A stretch of DNA of 12,928 bases from Bdellovibrionales bacterium. Lineage in GTDB: Bacteria; Bdellovibrionota; Bdellovibrionia; Bdellovibrionales; DASUEL01. Both the position numbers and the translations under genes were made by a program. The stretch covers positions 1-12,928 of the forward strand of contig JBFWOZ010000064.1 in NCBI GenBank assembly GCA_050250255.1. Reading direction: 5' to 3'. This document shows positions 1,968 to 12,737 of this stretch, piece by piece; positions within the stretch are counted from its first letter, which is position 1; the number at the start of each line of letters is the position of its first letter. The notes beneath the pieces are model-generated. The model made no database searches, was not told where the DNA came from, and saw only the letters and a list, made by a program, of their open reading frames with translations.

Positions 1968-2834
1968 TTACATCTGTGACTTAAGCGTTGTCGCTAAATC
2001 TGCAGGGCTTCGGGCGATGGCACAGCCAGCGCTTTGGAGGGCGTCGAATTTGTCTTTCGCCGTTCCTTTTCCACCGCTGATGATCGCGCCGGCATGACCC
2101 ATGCGTCTTCCCGGAGGAGCGCTGGCACCAGCGATAAAGCAAGTCACAGGTTTTTTAAACTCGCGCTTGATGTATTCGGCCGCCTCTTCTTCAGCGCTTC
2201 CGCCGATTTCACCGATCATGATCACGGCATCAGTGTCTTTGTCGGCATTGTAGAGCTCAAGAACGTCGATGAAGTTAGTTCCATTCACCGGATCACCACC
2301 AATGCCTACGCATGTACTTTGACCTAATCCGATTGCGGTTAATTGATGAACTGCTTCGTAAGTCAAAGTTCCTGAGCGAGAGAGAACTCCGATACGACCT
2401 GGTTTGTGAATGTAGCCTGGCATAATTCCGATTTTGCATTGGCCAGGAGTAATCACGCCAGGACAGTTCGGTCCTACAAGGCGAGTTTTTTTGCCTTGCA
2501 TGTAGCGTTTCACTTTCACCATATCTAAAACGGGAATTCCTTCAGTGATACAAACCACTAATTCGATTTTTGCATCGACCGCTTCCATGATGGCATCAGC
2601 GGCAAATGGCGGTGGAACGTAAATCACCGAAGCGTTTGCTCCAGTTTTCTTTACCGCTTCATCGACCGTGTTAAACACAGGAAGATTAAGATGTTTTGTT
2701 CCACCTTTTCCTGGAGTCACTCCGCCAACCATTTTGGTTCCGTACTGAATGGCTTGTTCCGAGTGAAAAGTCCCTTGTGCGCCGGTGAAGCCCTGACAAA
2801 TCACTTTTGTATTACTATTGATTAAAATCGCCAT
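1968..2834 (-). CDS. sucD: Succinyl-CoA synthetase alpha subunit
   Basis: Motifs [39 protein letters not shown] and RMGHAGAI (phospho-His). RBS AGGAG. Confidence 0.99.
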
Positions 2835-2843
2835 GGTCTTCTC

Positions 2844-4007
2844 CTACTTTTTAAGAGCAGCGACTACTTTTTTTGCTGCATCTGTTAGGTCGTTTGCGGG
2901 AATGATATTAAGTCCACTTTTTTCGAGAAGACTACGACCAAGTTCCACGTTTGTTCCTGCAAGTCGCACAACGAGAGGAACTTTGAGGCCGAGTTCTTTG
3001 GAAGCGGCAATCACGCCTTCGGCGATGATGTCACATTTCATAATCCCTCCAAAAATATTCACAAGAATCGCTTTTACATTGGGATCTCTTAAAATGATTT
3101 TGAAAGCCGTTGTAACTTTCTCTTTCGTTGCGCCACCACCAACGTCCAAAAAGTTGGCGGGTTCGCCACCGTGAATTTGGATGATGTCCATGGTCGACAT
3201 CGCAAGACCAGCACCATTCACAAGGCATCCGATGTTTCCATCGAGCTTAATGAATGCGAGATCACTCTTTGAAGCTTCTACTTCTGCCGGGTCTTCTTCG
3301 CGAATGTCGCGCATTTCGGCGATGTCTTTATGTCGAAAGAGAGCGTTGTCATCAAAGTTTAGCTTTGCATCGAGGGCTATTACGGTATTTTCTTTTGTCA
3401 AAACAAGAGGGTTGATCTCAGCAATAGAACAATCTGATTTTTCAAAGGCCTGGTAAAGAGCCATAAACATTTTTGTCGCTGGGCCAATGGCCGCTTCAGG
3501 AATGTTCAAAGCAAAGGCGAGTTGTCTTGCTTGAAAGGGGATTAAGCCGGTTGCAGGATCAATGCTCACACGAATAATTTTCTCAGGATGTTTTTCGGCC
3601 ACCTCTTCGATGTCCATTCCGCCTTCGCTAGAGGCCATCATGGTCACACGGCTTGTCGCCCGATCGACAAGAGCAGCAACATAATATTCTTTTGCAATAT
3701 TACATCCTTCTTCGACGAGCACTTGATGAACTTTCTTTCCTTCTGCGCCAGTTTGTGGAGTGACAAGAGTCATCCCAATGATCTGCTTGGCTACGGATTG
3801 AACTTCATCAAGATTCTTAGCGAGTTTTACCCCACCGCCTTTTCCGCGACCACCGGCGTGAACTTGGGCTTTTACCACCCAAACAGATCCGCCAAGGTCC
3901 TGCGCTGCTTTTTTCGCCTCTTCAGGAGTAGTTGCGACTTTTCCACGTAAAGTGGCAACGCCGTACTTCCTAAGAACTTCTTTTGCCTGATACTCATGAA
4001 TATTCAT
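2844..4007 (-). CDS. sucC: Succinyl-CoA synthetase beta subunit
   Basis: [65 protein letters not shown]. Confidence 0.99.
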
Positions 4008-4020
4008 GTTGAGTTTTTTC

Positions 4021-4968
4021 CTATGCCTTTAAATTTTTAAGAGCTTCGACGAGGCCTTTAACAGCGTTGATCGAGTTATCGAGACCTTTTTGTTCTTCGT
4101 CATTGAGTTTGAGCTCAATCACTTTTTCCATTCCTTTTCCACCGAGAACGCAAAGTACGCCCACGAAAATTCCTTTGACGCCGTACTCACCATCTAGGAG
4201 GGCGGCACAAGGAAGAATTCTTTTTTGATCTTTCAAAATCGCTTCGGCCATCTGTACTGCGCTGGCAGACGGAGCATAGTAAGCGGAACCAGTTTTTAAA
4301 AGAGCCACAACTTCCGCACCACCATTACGTGCACGGTTTACGAGAAAATCAATACGATCTTTAGGAAGAATTTCCATGAGAGGCACACCGCCGACGGAAC
4401 AGTGGCGAGGCATTGGAACCATTGTATCGCCGTGACCACCGAGAACAAAAGCCTGAACATCTTTTACACTCACATTGAGCTCTTCAGCGATAAAAGTACG
4501 GAAACGGGCACCATCAAGAACGCCGGCCATGCCGATGACGCGCTCGCGTGGAAATCCTAGAACTTCTTTCGCTACAAAAGCCATGGCATCGAGAGGGTTA
4601 CTCACGATAATCGCGACTGAGTTTGGAGAATATTTTTTTACACCTTCGCAGACTTCTTTCATAATTTTTGAGTTTGTCGAGAGAAGATCGTCGCGGCTCA
4701 TTCCAGGTTTTCGTGGAATACCGGCAGTGATGATGACAACGTCAGAATCGGCCGTGTCAGCATAGCTACTTGTTCCGGTGATACGTGAATCAAACACTTC
4801 TACGGGTGAAGAGCAGTAAAGATCTAATGCTTTTCCTTTCGCAGCACCCTCGTTGACGTCTAAGAGAACCACGTCGCCCAATTCTTTTTGAGCAGCCCAG
4901 TGAGCGCATGTTGAGCCCACAAATCCGGCTCCGATCACAGTGATTTTTTTTCTTTTATGTTGAACCAT
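4021..4968 (-). CDS. mdh: Malate dehydrogenase (LDH-like type)
   Basis: Rossmann GAGFVG; specificity loop [13 protein letters not shown] with the MDH Arg; VSNPLD, GGHGD, GSAYYAP. RBS AGGAG. Confidence 0.97.
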
Positions 4969-4984
4969 GATGTCAGTCTCCTAT

Positions 4985-6229
4985 TCACATGTTTTTAATA
5001 ATTTCTTCACCAAATTCAGAACATTTTAACAAAGTTGCGCCTTCCATCTGGCGATGGAAGTCGTAAGTCACTCGCTTATTCTGGATGGCTTTTTGTAATC
5101 CTTTTTCAACGAGCTCATAAGCCTCTTTCCAACCAAGATACTCGAGCATCATTGAGCCTGAAAGAATGACGGAACCAGGGTTCACTTTATCCTGACCCGC
5201 ATACTTCGGAGCTGTCCCATGAGTGGCTTCGAAAACGGCATAGCCATCTCCAATGTTAGCGCCCGGAGCAATTCCTAATCCACCAACCTGAGCGGCGAGA
5301 GCGTCACTAATGTAATCACCATTGAGATTTGGAAGGATCAAAACCGAATACTCTTCGGGTCTTAAGAGTGCCTGTTGGAACATGTTATCGGCAATGCGAT
5401 CTTTCACAATGATTTTGCCTGCGGGTGCTTTTCCGGCGTGTTTTTCCCAGACATCATCTTCCGTCACGATGTAGTCGCCATATTTTTCTTTGGCTTCTTG
5501 GTAACACCAGTCTTTAAAGGCACCTTCGGTGAACTTCATGATGTTGCCTTTGTGAACGGCCGTAACACTTGGTAGCTTGTTAGCAATGGCAAAATCCATT
5601 GCTTTTCTCATAAGACGTCTCGTGCCAAACTCGCTCATAGGTTTAATACCGATGGCTGAATTTTCACGAATTTTTTTTCCATGTTTTGCCGCAAGTTGAA
5701 TGAACTCATTCGCCTCTGGACTGCCGGCTGTCCACTCTACACCCGCATACACATCCTCTGTGTTTTCACGAAAGATCGTCATGTTGACTTTTTCTGGTTC
5801 TTTCACGGGAGAAGGAACGCCTTTGTACCATTTGCAAGGTCGCACGCACGCGTAGAGATCCATTTCTTTTCGAATGGCCACGTTCAAAGAGCGAATGCCT
5901 TTACCAACGGGAGTGCCAAGAGGTCCTTTGATGGAAACCACGAACTCTTTCATTGCGGCGAGTGTCTCATCAGGGAGCCACTGACCGTTGTATGTTTTTA
6001 CGGCTTTTTCACCAGCGTAGATTTCACACCACTGAATTTTCTTTTTTCCGCCGTAAGCTTTTTCGACAGCGGCATCAAGAACGCGAACTGAAGCGGCCCA
6101 AATGTCAGGACCGGTGCCGTCGCCTTCGATGAAGTTAATAATAGGCTGGTTAGGTACTTCGATTTTGCCATTTGTACCAATTTTGATTTTTTGTCCCTGA
6201 GTGGGGACTTTGATTTTTTCGTAAGACAT
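4985..6229 (-). CDS. icd: NADP-dependent isocitrate dehydrogenase (E. coli-type dimeric IDH, 414 aa)
   Basis: Likely start ATG at 6229 ([18 protein letters not shown]), not 6634. Motifs [51 protein letters not shown] determinants in HGTAPKYAG and VTYDFHR. Confidence 0.97.
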
Positions 6230-6458: not shown

Positions 6459-7223
6459 GTGCCAGGCACTCCCTTGATGAGTTTTAAAAATGTTTCGGTT
6501 CGTTTTAGTGAGCATACGGTGCTTTCGAGAGTGAATTTGGATCTCTTCGAAGGGGAAAGTCTTGTCATCATCGGTCCCAGCGGCCAGGGGAAGTCCGTCC
6601 TGTTAAAACTTTTTGCAGGACTAATGGAACCCACTGAGGGAGAAGTGCTTTGGTCTGGACGAAGTTCTACGAGTTACTCTCGAGCAGAGCGCGTCAATTG
6701 GCTACAGAAAATGGGAATGTTGTTTCAGAAAAATGCCCTCTTTGACTCTCTCTCGGTTGCAGAAAATGTCGCCTTTCCTCTTCGTGAAACCACCGCGAAG
6801 GGCGAAAAAGAAATCCAAGCTCTTGTAGATTATTACTTAGAGGCCGTAGGCTTACTAGAATCTAAAGGTAAATATCCCAGTGAAATCAGTGGTGGTATGC
6901 AAAAACGTCTCGGTATTGCGCGTGCTTTAGCACTGAAACCCAAGGTGATTTTGTACGATGACCCCACGGCCGGTCTTGATCCTATTACGAGTCGAAAGAT
7001 CATTCAGTTGATCTTAAATTTACAAAAAGAACTGAAGTCGACGATCATCACGATCACCAATGAAATGAATCGTGCTTTTCAATTGGCGGGGCGAATTTGT
7101 ATGGTCGTCGATGAGTCGGTGATTGAGATGGGCGACAGCCAAGCCTCTAAGAAACATCAAGATCCGCGTGTTCAACAATTTATCAGGGGAAATGTGTCAG
7201 GCCCGTTAACGGATCAGAGATAA
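6459..7223 (+). CDS. mlaF: MlaF/Mkl-family ABC ATPase, copy 1 (degenerate catalytic residues)
   Basis: Walker [33 protein letters not shown], signature ISGGMQKR, Walker B ILYDDP (E->D), switch ITNE (H->N), MlaF-type tail [15 protein letters not shown]. Start GTG 6459 or ATG 6477. Confidence 0.9.
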
Positions 7224-7224
7224 C

Positions 7225-7971
7225 ATGGTTGAGTTTAAAAATGTTCATAAGCAGTTTGGTTCTCATCATGTTTTAAAAGGAATTAGCTTTGCCATTGAGC
7301 AGGGCGAAATCATTTTTATTCTCGGAACTTCTGGTACAGGAAAGTCTGTCCTTTTAAAAAATATCGTAGGTTTACTCACACCTGACAGTGGGGAAATTTG
7401 GATTGATGGTGAAGAAGTAAGCCAGCTGACGGAGCTACAGTACTTTCCGATTCGAAAAAAGTGCGGAATGGTCTTTCAGCACCCCGCTCTCTTTGACTCA
7501 CTGACTGTTTATGAGAACGTCGCTTTTGGACTTAGAAAACATTTTCAACTTGCGGAAGAAGAAATCCAAAAACGAGTGAAAGAGTGTCTCGCGCTCGTTC
7601 ACTTAAGTGACATTGAAGAGAAGTTTCCTGGTGAGCTTTCGTACGGAATGCAAAAGCGTGTGAGTCTGGCGCGTACCGTCGCGTTACAGCCTAAAATCTT
7701 ACTTTTTGATGAACCGACGACAGGTTTAGATCCCGTCACTACCAATGCGGTGAATCTCCTGATTCAGGATCTTTCTAGAAAATTACACACCACCTCTTTG
7801 GTCGTGAGCCACGACATGAACTGTGCTCTTGATATCGCCGATCGTATTATTGTTCTGGATAAGGGCATAGTCATTTGTAATGGGACACCTCAAGAGCTGA
7901 AGAAAAACACTCAGCCGCTTGTCAAAGATTTTTTAGAAGAAGCTCTCCTGCTTCGAGGAGAAAGCTTATGA
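7225..7971 (+). CDS. mlaF: MlaF/Mkl-family ABC ATPase, copy 2 (altered signature motif)
   Basis: Walker A GTSGTGKS, GMVFQHPALFDSLTVYENVAF, signature LSYGMQKR, Walker B LLFDEP, switch VSHD. Confidence 0.9.
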   Translation: MVEFKNVHKQFGSHHVLKGISFAIEQGEIIFILGTSGTGKSVLLKNIVGLLTPDSGEIWIDGEEVSQLTELQYFPIRKKCGMVFQHPALFDSLTVYENVAFGLRKHFQLAEEEIQKRVKECLALVHLSDIEEKFPGELSYGMQKRVSLARTVALQPKILLFDEPTTGLDPVTTNAVNLLIQDLSRKLHTTSLVVSHDMNCALDIADRIIVLDKGIVICNGTPQELKKNTQPLVKDFLEEALLLRGESL

Positions 7972-8747
7972 GATTTCTTTACATGTTTTTGGACGAAGTG
8001 GGGCGAGAGGCTCTGTTTTTACGACAGATTGTCGAGACGGCCTGGTACCGACCATGTTCTTGGCACAGCATTTGTGAACAGATTTATAAAGTCACTATTC
8101 AGAGCTTGGCAACGGTCGCGATGGCAGGTTTTTTTGTCGGCGCGATTATTGTCATTCAATTTACTGTTCAAATTACCGAGTTTGGTGGGCTTGGATATCT
8201 GGGTGGCCTCACCACAAGTAGTGCGATTCGCGAAGTAGGTCCTCTTCTTATCGCCTTCATGTTAAGTGGAAAAGTGGGCGCCTATACTGCGGCCGAACTC
8301 GGAACCATGCGCGTGACAGAGCAAATCGATGCGATTCGCTGTTTGGGCTCTGATCCACTTCAAGAACTCATTCTTCCTCGTTTCATGGGAATTATTATAT
8401 CTAGCTTTCTTCTCCTGCTGCTCGGTTTGATCATGGCGATTGGGGGAGGAATGGTGATGGGAATTTACTTCGCAGATATAAGTTATGAAGAATATCTCCG
8501 GCATATCCCCACAATGCTTACTCTGCCCTCTATATATGGTGGCCTATTTAAGTGTCTTATTTTTTCGATCACGCTCGCGACCATTTGTACTTACAAAGGT
8601 TATTCGGCGAGCGGTGGAGCACGTGGGGTAGGTAAAGCAGTTGTACAGACGGCAATGATGACGATGATCGGGATCGTGCTCGCTGACTGGATCACGACAG
8701 AAGTTGCCAACTCCGTGAAAAACGCGTTTCAAATGGTGCAACTATGA
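7968..8747 (+). CDS. mlaE: MlaE/YrbE-family permease, copy 1
   Basis: REVGPLLIAFMLSGKVGAYTAAELGTMRVTEQIDAIRCLGSDP and GGARGVGKAV motifs; multiple TM segments; ATGA overlap with the upstream gene. Confidence 0.93.
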   Translation: MRFLYMFLDEVGREALFLRQIVETAWYRPCSWHSICEQIYKVTIQSLATVAMAGFFVGAIIVIQFTVQITEFGGLGYLGGLTTSSAIREVGPLLIAFMLSGKVGAYTAAELGTMRVTEQIDAIRCLGSDPLQELILPRFMGIIISSFLLLLLGLIMAIGGGMVMGIYFADISYEEYLRHIPTMLTLPSIYGGLFKCLIFSITLATICTYKGYSASGGARGVGKAVVQTAMMTMIGIVLADWITTEVANSVKNAFQMVQL

Positions 8748-9517
8748 TCTCCGCGCTTGGTCAACAACTGATTTATAGTTCCACGGCGGCCCTCGAATTT
8801 ATAGAGCTATGTAGGCAGAGTGTATACAGCCTTTTCACCACAAAACTGAGACTCGATTCCTGCATGAAACAGTTTTATTTTGTGGCCAATCAGAGCGCTC
8901 CTATCGTGGCCTTTTGCGTCTGCTTTGCATCTATTGTTACGATTATTGAAGCAGTTTATCACATGCAAATAGTGATTGGTGATGTGTCGATGGTACCAGG
9001 ATTTGCGTCGCTATTTATTCTTCGTGAAATGGGAGTCGCAATTGCTTGTTTGCTTGTGACTTCGCGAGTGGGTGCGGGGATCGCGGCCGAACTCGGTTCG
9101 ATGACGGTGACGGAGCAAATTGATGCATTGAAAATGTTAGGGATTGATCCGATACAATTCTTAGTCGTTCCACGTCTTGTCGCCTGCGTTTTGGGCTGTG
9201 CTCTTTTAAGTATTCTTGCGAATGGCCTCTGCTTGCTCGGTGCCGCGCTGGTGAGTCAACATTTAATTGGGTACACGGTTGGGGAGTTTCTTGTAGCCAT
9301 GAGACGGTTTGTGGAATTCAAAGATATTCTCTTTCCTATTCTGAAAGGCGCAGCCTTCGGTGCAGCCATTCCACTCATTGCCTGTTATTTTGGATTGAAA
9401 TGTAAATCGGGTGCGGAGGGAGTGGGGCAAGCAACCACAAACAGTGTGGTGACGGCCTCGGTCGCAATTATTATTTTAGATTTTATTTTGGGTTATATTC
9501 TGTCACACTTTTACTAG
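8744..9517 (+). CDS. mlaE: MlaE/YrbE-family permease, copy 2
   Basis: REMG...RVGAGIAAELGSMTVTEQIDALKMLGIDP and GAEGVGQATTNSVV motifs; ATGA overlap at 8744-8747. Confidence 0.93.
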   Translation: MISALGQQLIYSSTAALEFIELCRQSVYSLFTTKLRLDSCMKQFYFVANQSAPIVAFCVCFASIVTIIEAVYHMQIVIGDVSMVPGFASLFILREMGVAIACLLVTSRVGAGIAAELGSMTVTEQIDALKMLGIDPIQFLVVPRLVACVLGCALLSILANGLCLLGAALVSQHLIGYTVGEFLVAMRRFVEFKDILFPILKGAAFGAAIPLIACYFGLKCKSGAEGVGQATTNSVVTASVAIIILDFILGYILSHFY

Positions 9518-9526
9518 AGGAAAGCG

Positions 9527-10309
9527 TTGTTTATGAAAGTCGAAACCAAAGTAGGTTTGCTATTTGTCGCTGCAATTTTAATTGTTCTTGGTTTTGCCTA
9601 TTTGATTGGCGCGCTCAACCCTTTCTCTAACTCACACACACTTTATGTGACTTACAACTACGCAGGTGGGATTGAGGTCGGCTCATCGGTTCGTGTGATG
9701 GGAATTAAAGTGGGTAAAGTCGAATCCATCATGTTTGATCCGACGATGAAGGACCTCAACGGAGAAGAAGTCAAATTGCAGCTTAAAATTTCGATTTCGA
9801 AAAAAGCGTGGAGTTCTATTCGTCAAGACAGCAAATTTTTTATCAATATTGCTGGTCTGATTGGAGAGAAGTTTTTAGAAATTTCTCCGGGCAGCACTTC
9901 TCTTCCTGAGTTGAATGCTGGCCAAACTGTTCGTGGTGAGGATCCTCCTCGAGTGGACCAGTTGTTGTCACAAGGCTATGGGCTAGCAGGAAAGATCCTC
10001 GAGTTTGTAGAAAAGAACGAAGGCGGAGTGACTCGCACGCTCGAAACCATGGATAAACTCGTCTCCAATCTGAATAGAACTCTCGTGCAGATGGATAAAA
10101 CGACCAAAAATGTGGAAATCAACCGCATCTTGAAGAATATAGATCAAATCACCGGTGATATGGCCCACGTAACCTCTAAAGTACGCACTCCAGAAGGTGA
10201 AAAAACACTCGGACTTCTACACAACCTCATTTGGCGACTGGAACCAATGGATGCCAAGGCCATTAAAAAGTTTTTGCAGGATGATGGAATTCGCGCGAAA
10301 CTTTTCTAA
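9527..10309 (+). CDS. mlaD: MCE-domain protein (MlaD-like) with extended C-terminal helical region
   Basis: N-terminal 'ETKVGL' plus TM helix; MCE motifs AGGIEVGSSVRVMGIKVGKV and GLIGEKFLEISPG; about 120-aa amphipathic helical tail. Start TTG 9527 or ATG 9533. Confidence 0.9.
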   Translation: MFMKVETKVGLLFVAAILIVLGFAYLIGALNPFSNSHTLYVTYNYAGGIEVGSSVRVMGIKVGKVESIMFDPTMKDLNGEEVKLQLKISISKKAWSSIRQDSKFFINIAGLIGEKFLEISPGSTSLPELNAGQTVRGEDPPRVDQLLSQGYGLAGKILEFVEKNEGGVTRTLETMDKLVSNLNRTLVQMDKTTKNVEINRILKNIDQITGDMAHVTSKVRTPEGEKTLGLLHNLIWRLEPMDAKAIKKFLQDDGIRAKLF

Positions 10310-10318
10310 GGGGGATCC

Positions 10319-10918
10319 ATGAAATCCATTTTGAGCGTGATTTTACTTTTCGCTTTCTGTTCGCCGGTGCAAGCGTCTCTCTTTGTCAGAAACGGCCAGC
10401 GTAAAGAGGTGCAAACCTCGCAGACCAAACAAGCTTCCGATGGTTATGGCCTTCGTAAAACTCGCAGAGTGGGCGTTGGTGTGAGCGGTGCCGGTCCTTT
10501 AGGACTTGCAGGAGCTAACTTGGAACTCAACATCACTCCTAAGTGGAGTCTCATGGCGGGTTATGGAACGGGCGTTCATTATCAATCCTACACCTTTCAA
10601 GCAAAACGCGTACTCGCTGGAGAATATCTTCTTCCTTATATGGCGGCAGGAGTTTCGCGTTGGTACACTACGGCTCCGGGGCACGGCAAAATTGATAACA
10701 TTCAGCCTGCGTTCCTCGACAGATTTATGAGTGCCGACGAAAAAGCATCAGGAGAGTTCTCCGAACTTCTTCTTTACCCTGCATTTGGTCTTCAATATGT
10801 CCAATTAGATGGAAGTTGGGCAGGCTATTCGATGTTTGTCGAAGTCCTCCTCCTTTTAGATATTGAGGAGTTTGAGACTGCGCCGACGGCCACCGTAGGC
10901 TTTCTCTACTACTTCTAA
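10319..10918 (+). CDS. Small outer-membrane beta-barrel protein (probably 8-stranded)
   Basis: Signal peptide ending VQA; alternating strands VGVGVS, ANLELN, SLMAGYG, PYMAAGVS, FGLQY, MFVEV; BAM-type C-terminus VGFLYYF; 9-nt gap after mlaD. Confidence 0.75.
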   Translation: MKSILSVILLFAFCSPVQASLFVRNGQRKEVQTSQTKQASDGYGLRKTRRVGVGVSGAGPLGLAGANLELNITPKWSLMAGYGTGVHYQSYTFQAKRVLAGEYLLPYMAAGVSRWYTTAPGHGKIDNIQPAFLDRFMSADEKASGEFSELLLYPAFGLQYVQLDGSWAGYSMFVEVLLLLDIEEFETAPTATVGFLYYF

Positions 10919-11601: not shown

Positions 11602-12345
11602 TTGACGTCTTTTTTTGTTTTTGCTGCAGTTTTGGTTGGATTTCGTGTCGATATTCGGATGATTGAGCACCTTTTCAACTCAAAAATCGTTCACAAAAGC
11701 ACAACAACACTTTTGAAACGCAGTTTTTTCTGCATTTATTTTGCGTTGATCCTCTTTTTTGTCAAAAAACCGACGCTTCTATGGTCAGTAGTGCTGTTTT
11801 TAAAGATTTTTTTGCTCTTATTCGAAAAAATCTTGAAGAAATATCGAGAAAATAAATTTCACACACACCTTCTTCTGTTTGTTGATCGTGTGATTCTAAA
11901 TGTGCAAGCTGGAAAATCATTTCGACATGCATTGGAGCGCGCACATGCTGTGAGTGATGTTTTTACGCAACAAAGAATGCGTAAGCTGATTGAATCTGTG
12001 TGTTTTGCGCAACAAATACGCGAAGAAACTCTTCAAAGTGACTTTTTAATTTCTGAATTACGGCAAATTGATCAGAATCCTCACAAAACATTACAAAGAT
12101 TAGAGCAATTACGTCGGCAATTAAAAATTGAGTCCGAGTTTCGACAAAAGTCTGCACAAGTATCGTTTCGGTTTCGGACTCAGTCCTACATCATGTGTGC
12201 TTTGTATTTTGCACTTTTCGTTTTTGTTTTGCGTGTTTGTGACCTGTCACGCACCTGGCCCATGCTTTTAGCATCCATCGTGTTTTTTCTCACAGGCGTT
12301 CTGTGGGTCTTTGTCAGTGGAAGGAGAATCAAATGGAAAGTTTAG
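11602..12345 (+). CDS. Divergent TadB-like / type II secretion F-family inner-membrane protein
   Basis: TTG start with GGAGG RBS. Two TM helices, then 'F...L..FVDRVILNVQAGKSFRHALE' (T2SSF-like start), a helical region, and a C-terminal TM pair ending in basic residues. Confidence 0.65.
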   Translation: MTSFFVFAAVLVGFRVDIRMIEHLFNSKIVHKSTTTLLKRSFFCIYFALILFFVKKPTLLWSVVLFLKIFLLLFEKILKKYRENKFHTHLLLFVDRVILNVQAGKSFRHALERAHAVSDVFTQQRMRKLIESVCFAQQIREETLQSDFLISELRQIDQNPHKTLQRLEQLRRQLKIESEFRQKSAQVSFRFRTQSYIMCALYFALFVFVLRVCDLSRTWPMLLASIVFFLTGVLWVFVSGRRIKWKV

Positions 12346-12737
12346 CGCCTCCATTGAGGTTGGTACTCGCGATGAGACGATCTGTAGAGAGTGGAGAATC
12401 TGTCGCCTCAGCGACGAGAAAGTATCTGCAGCTTCCTGCTGATGAATTAACTCCATTCGTTACTCAGTGTCTGCTGCATAAAAAAGTGGATGGTTCACTA
12501 AGCCCATGTCGTGAGGCTGTCTTAACCGTCATGCAATCTGGACTAGATGGGCAGCCAATTCTACCGGCACTAATGAGGCTGGAACAAGAAATCATCGAGC
12601 AGTGTCAGTTAGAGATGCAAACGACACTGGATCGGATTCCCTTTCAGCTGCTGTGGCCTATGCTTCTCTTGCAATTTCCCGCCTATCTACTGCTTCTCAT
12701 CGGTCCACTCATGGAAGCGCTTTTAGGAGGTTTGTAA
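12333..12737 (+). CDS. Short TadC-like / T2SSF-like protein (134 aa)
   Basis: ATG 12333 with AGGAG RBS, overlapping the previous stop. 'SVESGESV', 'GLDGQPILPALMRLEQE' and TadC-like terminal TM 'LLWPMLLLQFPAYLLLLIGP'. Confidence 0.6.
   Translation: MESLAPPLRLVLAMRRSVESGESVASATRKYLQLPADELTPFVTQCLLHKKVDGSLSPCREAVLTVMQSGLDGQPILPALMRLEQEIIEQCQLEMQTTLDRIPFQLLWPMLLLQFPAYLLLLIGPLMEALLGGL

Follow-up and report, generated by a model that had tools for sequence, protein, structure and literature searches.

The operon at 6459-10918 of the window, the 12,928-nucleotide stretch of Bdellovibrionales DNA analysed here, most probably encodes an MCE-type transporter built from two unlike ATPases and two unlike permeases, whose motor would hydrolyse ATP at one site and carry a degenerate second site; we put the probability of this reading at about 80%. 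It rests on the motifs of the ATPases MlaF1 and MlaF2 (F1 and F2), the organisation of the operon, the conservation and co-occurrence of the two genes across genomes and a crossed pattern of conservation between them, all read at the sequence level. The original prediction for this DNA placed three substitutions in one composite site of an F1-F2 heterodimer and left the other site consensus. The motifs fall out in this way and all 138 tandem pairs collected carry the pattern, from which we infer a heterodimer and hydrolysis at a single site. Papers are cited for the part of their text that was available.

The operon and its products

The gene order is mlaF1-mlaF2-mlaE1-mlaE2-mlaD followed by an outer-membrane barrel gene, all on the forward strand (Table 1). 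Coupling within the run is tight: F1 and F2 lie 1 nt apart, the next two junctions overlap as ATGA, and about 10 nt separate the genes at each of the last two. Judged by its permeases, MCE domain and nucleotide-binding domains (NBDs) with Met in the signature, the operon is of the MCE/Mla class; Met at this place is a hallmark of MlaF, which forms a dimer (PMC7367683). Promoter and terminator scans at the operon gave results at chance level, and a Pfam scan of the locus proteins found no MlaB, MlaC or MlaA gene at the locus.

Table 1. Genes of the operon and key residues of the two ATPases (window coordinates).
Feature	Position	Strand	Description
mlaF1	6459..7223	+	MlaF-type ABC ATPase, 254 aa; GTG start, SD-like AAGGA 8 nt upstream
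F1 Walker A	6573..6596	+	GPSGQGKS, intact
F1 signature	6885..6902	+	ISGGMQ, consensus; would complete the predicted consensus site in trans
F1 Asp168	6960..6962	+	GAC in ILYDDP, at the place of the catalytic Glu
F1 Asn201	7059..7061	+	AAT in ITNE, at the place of the switch His
mlaF2	7225..7971	+	MlaF-type ABC ATPase, 248 aa; start 1 nt past the F1 stop
F2 Tyr140	7642..7644	+	TAC in LSYGMQ, third signature position
F2 Glu163	7711..7713	+	GAA in LLFDEP, intact
F2 His196	7810..7812	+	CAC in VSHD, intact
mlaE1	7968..8747	+	MlaE-family permease, 259 aa; Pfam PF02405, 1e-58; ATGA overlap with mlaF2
mlaE2	8744..9517	+	MlaE-family permease, 257 aa; Pfam PF02405, 1.4e-59; ATGA overlap with mlaE1
mlaD-type	9527..10309	+	one MCE domain, Pfam PF02470, 2.2e-17; start TTG 9527 or ATG 9533
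barrel gene	10319..10918	+	199 aa; predicted 8-stranded outer-membrane beta-barrel, no Pfam match

All six codons and motifs named in the original prediction were confirmed at their coordinates by reading the letters. F1 and F2 are 41% identical. In an alignment to the solved MlaF chains 7d06 and 6xbd (ELSGGM, DEP, SHD), Asp168 and Asn201 of F1 stand where these chains have the catalytic Glu and the switch His, and Tyr140 of F2 falls on signature position 3. The Q-loop of F1 is intact and its D-loop consensus; the Walker A motif (GTSGTGKS) and A-loop of F2 are intact as well. Among solved structures F1 matched MlaF chains best, and F2 had them as its top single-domain match. The NCBIfam MlaF equivalog scored the two copies at 187 and 204, with a cut-off of 441.

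The permeases share 29% identity, their PDB matches being MlaE and YrbE chains, and would pair in one transporter. The mlaD-type protein has a C-terminal extension of about 130 aa beyond the MCE domain. The barrel protein starts with a hydrophobic helix and has Phe as its last residue; its model, made from a 28-row alignment, has 8 strands and a pLDDT of 88, and a fold search with this model gave the OprF barrel 4rlc as top match (E 2e-5). A homologue lies 3' of mlaD in at least 23 of the 55 loci with room for it, and the gene position suggests a role in the MCE system.

Upstream, a TCA-cycle cluster at 1968-6229 on the reverse strand is transcribed divergently from the operon; from the translations we take its genes to be icd, mdh, sucC and sucD. 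Since icd starts near 6229, the extension to 6634 across mlaF1 given by the ORF finder is probably spurious. Similar genes were also seen beside mlaF1 in two other loci (L297 and L033). Past the operon, two membrane-protein ORFs at 11602-12737 on the forward strand have no Pfam matches and may resemble TadB/TadC-like pilus assembly proteins; similar ORFs lie past the operon in loci L299 and L300 too.

Conservation and inheritance of the two ATPases

Loci were drawn from 41 relatives, 80 genome contigs, 301 genomes of the phylum and 80 metagenome contigs. The first set held 125 tandem pairs with both genes longer than 200 aa, of which 114 were left after deduplication and 111 after a 97% filter. 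Another 36 loci yielded 27 complete pairs, six consensus single MlaF genes, two F2 genes at a contig end and one cut F2, and the pooled set came to 138 distinct tandem pairs. Controls were 123 distinct MCE loci with a single ATPase gene preceded by mlaE (125 unfiltered).

F2 kept both its Glu and its His in all 138 pairs, and its third signature position was Tyr in 104, Phe in 30, Ile in two, His in two and Gly in none. For F1, the S, G, G and M of the signature were invariant, as were the Walker A Lys and the Walker B Asp, while the catalytic position of Walker B was Asp in 92, Glu in 45 and Asn in one, and the switch position Asn in 99, Ser in 31, Thr in five and Gly, Ala and His in one each. 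No F1 had Glu and His together. Among the controls, Glu, His and Gly were all present in 123/123. Every pair thus combines a loss of catalytic residues in F1 with an F2 signature that lacks the Gly, and in none are both copies consensus, so the check proposed with the original prediction came out in its favour. The constant features are the loss of His in F1 (137/138) and the bulky residue in the F2 signature. Glu-to-Asp is optional: it is general in the order of the window and patchy elsewhere, with at least five Glu/Asp changes on the F2 tree.

The complementary pattern was present in none of the 30 best MlaF loci from 151 genomes of another deltaproteobacterial sample (the phylum of G319), and the fetched windows of these same 30 loci contained consensus MlaF genes with no tandem partner. 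An F2-type gene was found in about 132 of the 301 phylum genomes (141 matches less eight consensus and one borderline, the rest having been fetched only in part), and the mlaF1-mlaF2 operon is widespread in Bdellovibrionota. As these genomes are kin, the pairs represent one old arrangement that was retained and not 138 independent events. Over 111 pairs, each of the altered residues is encoded by both of its synonymous codons (GAT 45 and GAC 29, AAT 50 and AAC 39, TAC 50 and TAT 43).

The dN/dS ratios in the five closest pairs were 0.04-0.12 for F1 and 0.01-0.08 for F2; the saturation filter left 21 of 6105 pairs, and the deeper ones, with values up to 0.56, are unreliable. By these sequence comparisons copy 1 is under purifying selection: a relaxation, which would have spoken against the original prediction, has not gone as far as neutrality, the values in close pairs lying far below 1. 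F1 evolves faster overall, with a median pairwise identity of 48% against 57% for F2.

A FastTree phylogeny placed F1, together with orphan F1-like genes, in one clade and F2 in another, each with a support of 100; the two were not sisters, with weak support. None of the 31 strongly supported F1 splits conflicted with the F2 tree and 40 of 108 splits were shared. Among the 41 relatives, 25 had both genes, 15 had neither and one had F2 at a contig start. Across the searched genomes no F2-type gene was found without F1 except for three at contig ends. One genome (G007) has F1 beside icd and F2-E1-E2-D-barrel on a different contig, both motif sets being unchanged. For six loci of Bdellovibrio relatives (L034, L036, L223, L228, L368 and L369), 1-7 kb of other DNA separates an intact F1 from an intact F2.

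Conservation within the two proteins was compared by column entropy over the 138 pairs, with the three altered positions excluded. The 12 Walker-side columns had a mean entropy of 0.53 bits in F1 and 0.01 bits in F2, F1 being the more variable in eight of them and F2 in none. This was reversed for the 11 columns of the signature and D-loop (0.06 bits in F1 and 0.47 bits in F2; F2 more variable in eight, F1 in one), against a whole-protein entropy of 1.81 bits for F1 and 1.38 bits for F2 (221 columns). F1 is thus constrained on the face that it would lend to the catalytic residues of F2, and F2 relaxed where it would face the defective residues of F1. Independent homodimers do not predict such crossed conservation, which among the sequence data speaks most strongly for the heterodimer.

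A predicted complex of F1 and F2 with ATP and Mg scored 0.70, with 0.23 for the best control. The mark used is reached by 116 of 157 solved pairs and by two of 215 mismatched pairs, counts that hold only roughly here; as MlaF dimers have already been solved, the pass may come from likeness to them, and the model was used for geometry and not as proof of binding. Runs agreed in at least 93% of contacts, with a partner pLDDT of at least 88 and a head-to-tail arrangement. F2 residues 139-142 pack on the Walker A motif of F1, with Tyr140 touching Ser46 and Asp168 of F1, and F1 residues 144-147 pack on the Walker A motif of F2. A QFIxGxxxGP stretch of F1 aligns with QFLDGIADGP of E. coli MlaF. Its C-terminal GxxxGP motif, which falls on E. 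coli MlaF residues 245-252, close to the extension that makes up the MlaF handshake (PMC7367683), was present in 90/111 F1, 0/111 F2 and 9/123 single-ATPase controls, and these controls leave its meaning uncertain.

The same genome, 99% complete, has two more MCE loci, each with one consensus MlaF. A fourth (L303:2690-3445, reverse strand, contig C26; mlaE-NBD-mlaD) has an NBD with no Walker A, no recognisable signature and no switch His (Pfam ABC_tran at only 2e-12); it is apparently dead and might rely on an ATPase encoded at another place. Two lone ABC ATPases of the genome have the signatures YSKGM and LSLGE. Contig C8 encodes, at 56024-57511, a fused two-domain sugar-type ABC ATPase with LSIGE in the first domain and no Walker A match in the second, again an altered third signature residue paired with a probably dead site.

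Seven F1-like paralogues were found in loci without F2, E or D, and one of the genomes that carry them (G194) had no F2-type match. These orphans (L231 and L233-L238) have Asp for Glu, a varied switch residue and, in some, GQDP D-loops; by eye, from their translations, several lie near apparent small heat-shock, CBS-domain or cation-ATPase genes.

Fused tandem MlaF-like ATPases of about 540 aa (P0001-P0004, P0152, P0195-P0314) came from sources that include Myxococcota, Kofleriaceae and Bradymonadales. Among the best 120 long matches, 116 could be split; the second half has an SxGQ signature, non-Gly in 115/116, with a GQDP D-loop, the first half is consensus, and nearly all halves keep Glu and His. 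They were rejected as F1-F2 fusions, as both halves of 116/116 score best to the canonical profile and not to that of F1 or F2, and no F1-F2 fusion was found among these 120. The fused proteins form a lineage separate from F1 and F2, possibly with an independent and milder asymmetry.

A proposed asymmetric motor and its alternatives

ATP sites of ABC proteins are composite, and Glu and His are needed for efficient hydrolysis (PMC7544095; PMC3971661). We propose that F1, F2, E1 and E2 likely assemble beneath an MlaD ring. Site B, made up of the A-loop, Walker A, Glu163 and His196 of F2 with the signature and D-loop of F1, follows the consensus throughout and would be the one that hydrolyses ATP. 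Site A would combine Walker A, Asp168 and Asn201 of F1 with the SYGM signature and D-loop of F2, and would hydrolyse slowly or never; because F1 keeps its Walker A Lys and Walker B Asp, it would still bind Mg-ATP. A precedent for the part of Tyr140 is found in ABCB1, in which removal of Glu locks ATP and stops transport, and addition of ABCB11 changes restores transport through weaker binding (PMC7544095). One of the four changes that rescue this Glu-less site is G1178R, next to the signature Ser1177 (PMC7544095). As Tyr140 occupies the position of G1178R, the same role is suggested for it: through its bulk the Tyr probably loosens site A, where ATP left unhydrolysed would then not lock the dimer, and site B could drive the cycle. 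To judge from the family, the transporter probably carries a lipid or some other hydrophobic compound across the envelope.

One alternative retains the heterodimer and lets both sites hydrolyse at unequal rates, with a site A that the aromatic residue of F2 and the smaller Asn and Asp of F1 would remodel but leave active, and a motor that is tuned and not single-site. The contact between Tyr140 and Asp168 in the model would fit it, as would the non-random choice of replacements (Asn or Ser in 130/138, Tyr or Phe in 134/138) and the conservation in F1 of the Walker A Lys, Q-loop Gln (0.99) and Walker B Asp. Glu is moreover present in 45/138 F1 and His in one (L026), so that site A may be slowed and not dead in some lineages. 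We nevertheless hold this alternative to be unlikely: Glu and His, both described as necessary for efficient hydrolysis (PMC7544095), never occur together in an F1, the His position drifts among Asn, Ser, Thr, Gly and Ala, and other residues of site A are relaxed (A-loop 0.74, F2 signature Met 0.75, F2 D-loop 0.93). A reading in which F2 works as an active homodimer, with F1 as a catalytically poor, exchangeable regulator or inhibitor of this or of the other MCE systems of the genome, is still harder to accept and seems very improbable to us. An active F2 homodimer would keep its own signature and D-loop constrained, yet these are relaxed and those of F1 nearly invariant, and F2 was seen without F1 only at contig ends; the reading can point to the lone ABC ATPases that tolerate a non-Gly third signature residue, to the orphan F1-like genes away from MCE loci and to the three other MCE loci of the genome. 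The statement of the original prediction that a homodimer of either copy would have two impaired sites is weaker for copy 2. With non-Gly signatures in lone ATPases, and opposite Glu and His in the fused proteins, the Tyr alone cannot show that an F2 homodimer is dead.

That copy 1 is a decaying duplicate, or that the substitutions are assembly errors, has practically no chance left. The faster overall evolution of F1 would be expected of decay, but the same changes occur phylum-wide, dN/dS is low in close pairs and all matches have open frames; the dN/dS values and the conservation over the tandem pairs refute this reading. Strain-specific decay and sequencing error, which had been raised as possible objections, are excluded together with chance by the presence of the pattern in 138/138 pairs against 0/123 controls and by the mixed synonymous codons.

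The asymmetric motor would be of interest because the MCE motors in the checked papers and structures use one ATPase twice. If the reading is true, one hydrolysing site is enough to power a transporter of the MCE class, and mutations in a single subunit could separate the roles of the two sites, and those of ATP binding and hydrolysis, which is impossible in a homodimer. Other classes of ABC protein often have degenerate sites, and the surprise is limited to that extent. The operon is present in a named Bdellovibrio bacteriovorus (L033, strain kdesi), so the proposal is testable in a cultured predator; lipid uptake from prey by Bdellovibrio is described as unresolved in the available part of a preprint (bioRxiv 10.1101/2025.09.09.675085). 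A far-reaching version would join the asymmetric F1-F2-E1-E2 core, with its one hydrolysing site, to a Tyr wedge that stops a lock at the dead site, a small outer-membrane barrel of its own coupled through MlaD, a dedicated route for uptake of prey-derived lipid by Bdellovibrio-like predators and a gating or energy-sensing role for the ATP bound at the dead site, as the first case in the MCE class; taken as a whole, this is speculative and rather doubtful.

Comparison with known systems

Among solved structures, F1, E1 and E2 match the MlaFEDB complexes of E. coli, A. baumannii and P. aeruginosa (6xbd, 7d06, 7ch8) best, and these complexes also rank near the top for F2 and MlaD. They share the Met signature, the MlaE permease and a protein with a single MCE domain. 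MlaFEDB has one ATPase gene and one permease gene and consensus Glu, His and Gly, whereas here there are two of each gene with complementary changes. The present locus also differs in the lack of MlaB, MlaC and MlaA, a longer MlaD and a downstream barrel gene. With two ATPase genes, neither of them consensus, the operon is not a strict MlaFEDB. The minimal MlaEFD of Veillonella parvula has, as here, a core of three kinds of component, no MlaABC and an MlaD with an extension (PMC10665443); that system has a single mlaE and a single mlaF, is modelled as 2:2:6 and has an MlaD of 419 aa, against about 260 aa in the window (PMC10665443).

Two different permeases, as here, are found in mycobacterial Mce1 (YrbE1A/B, MceG, Mce1A-F; 8fed) (PMC13492129), and F1, E1 and E2 have sequence matches to its chains. 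Mce1 has an MceG homodimer that is shared between systems and six different MCE proteins (PMC13492129), against two ATPases and one MCE gene in the window. The background given in the original prediction, that characterised MCE ATPases are homodimers, agrees with the available text on both the MlaF dimer (PMC7367683) and the MceG homodimer (PMC13492129). An MCE system with two ATPases or a degenerate site was not found described in the literature searched, which did not extend to supplements (with possible MCE tables) or to most subscription papers. For LivF/LivG as a precedent no support was found in the literature, and the pair was not counted as evidence. With one MCE gene and two ATPase genes, the operon is not of the Mce1/Mce4 type.

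TM287/288, MsRv1273c/72c, ABCB11, TAP and CFTR were taken for comparison as heterodimeric ABC exporters with a degenerate site. The sequence features of such a design are all found here: each of the 138 F1 lacks Glu, His or both, the signature of the partner is altered and the other site is consensus. The degenerate site of MsRv1273c/72c has Asp497 and Gln528 in place of Glu and His, both on MsRv1273c (PMC12038006), which resembles F1, and that of TM287/288 has a Glu-to-Asp change, as in F1 Asp168, and a replaced His (PMC3971661). ABCB11 has the bulky G1178R at signature position 3 of the partner (PMC7544095), comparable to F2 Tyr140. A motor with one working and one weakened site, known from drug exporters and not found described for MCE transporters in the literature searched, is likely what these sequences encode. 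The asymmetric exporters have the exporter fold, with the NBD fused to the transmembrane domain; the operon encodes free NBD subunits for a transporter of the MlaE fold, and on the sequence comparison the resemblance is one of design and not of family membership.
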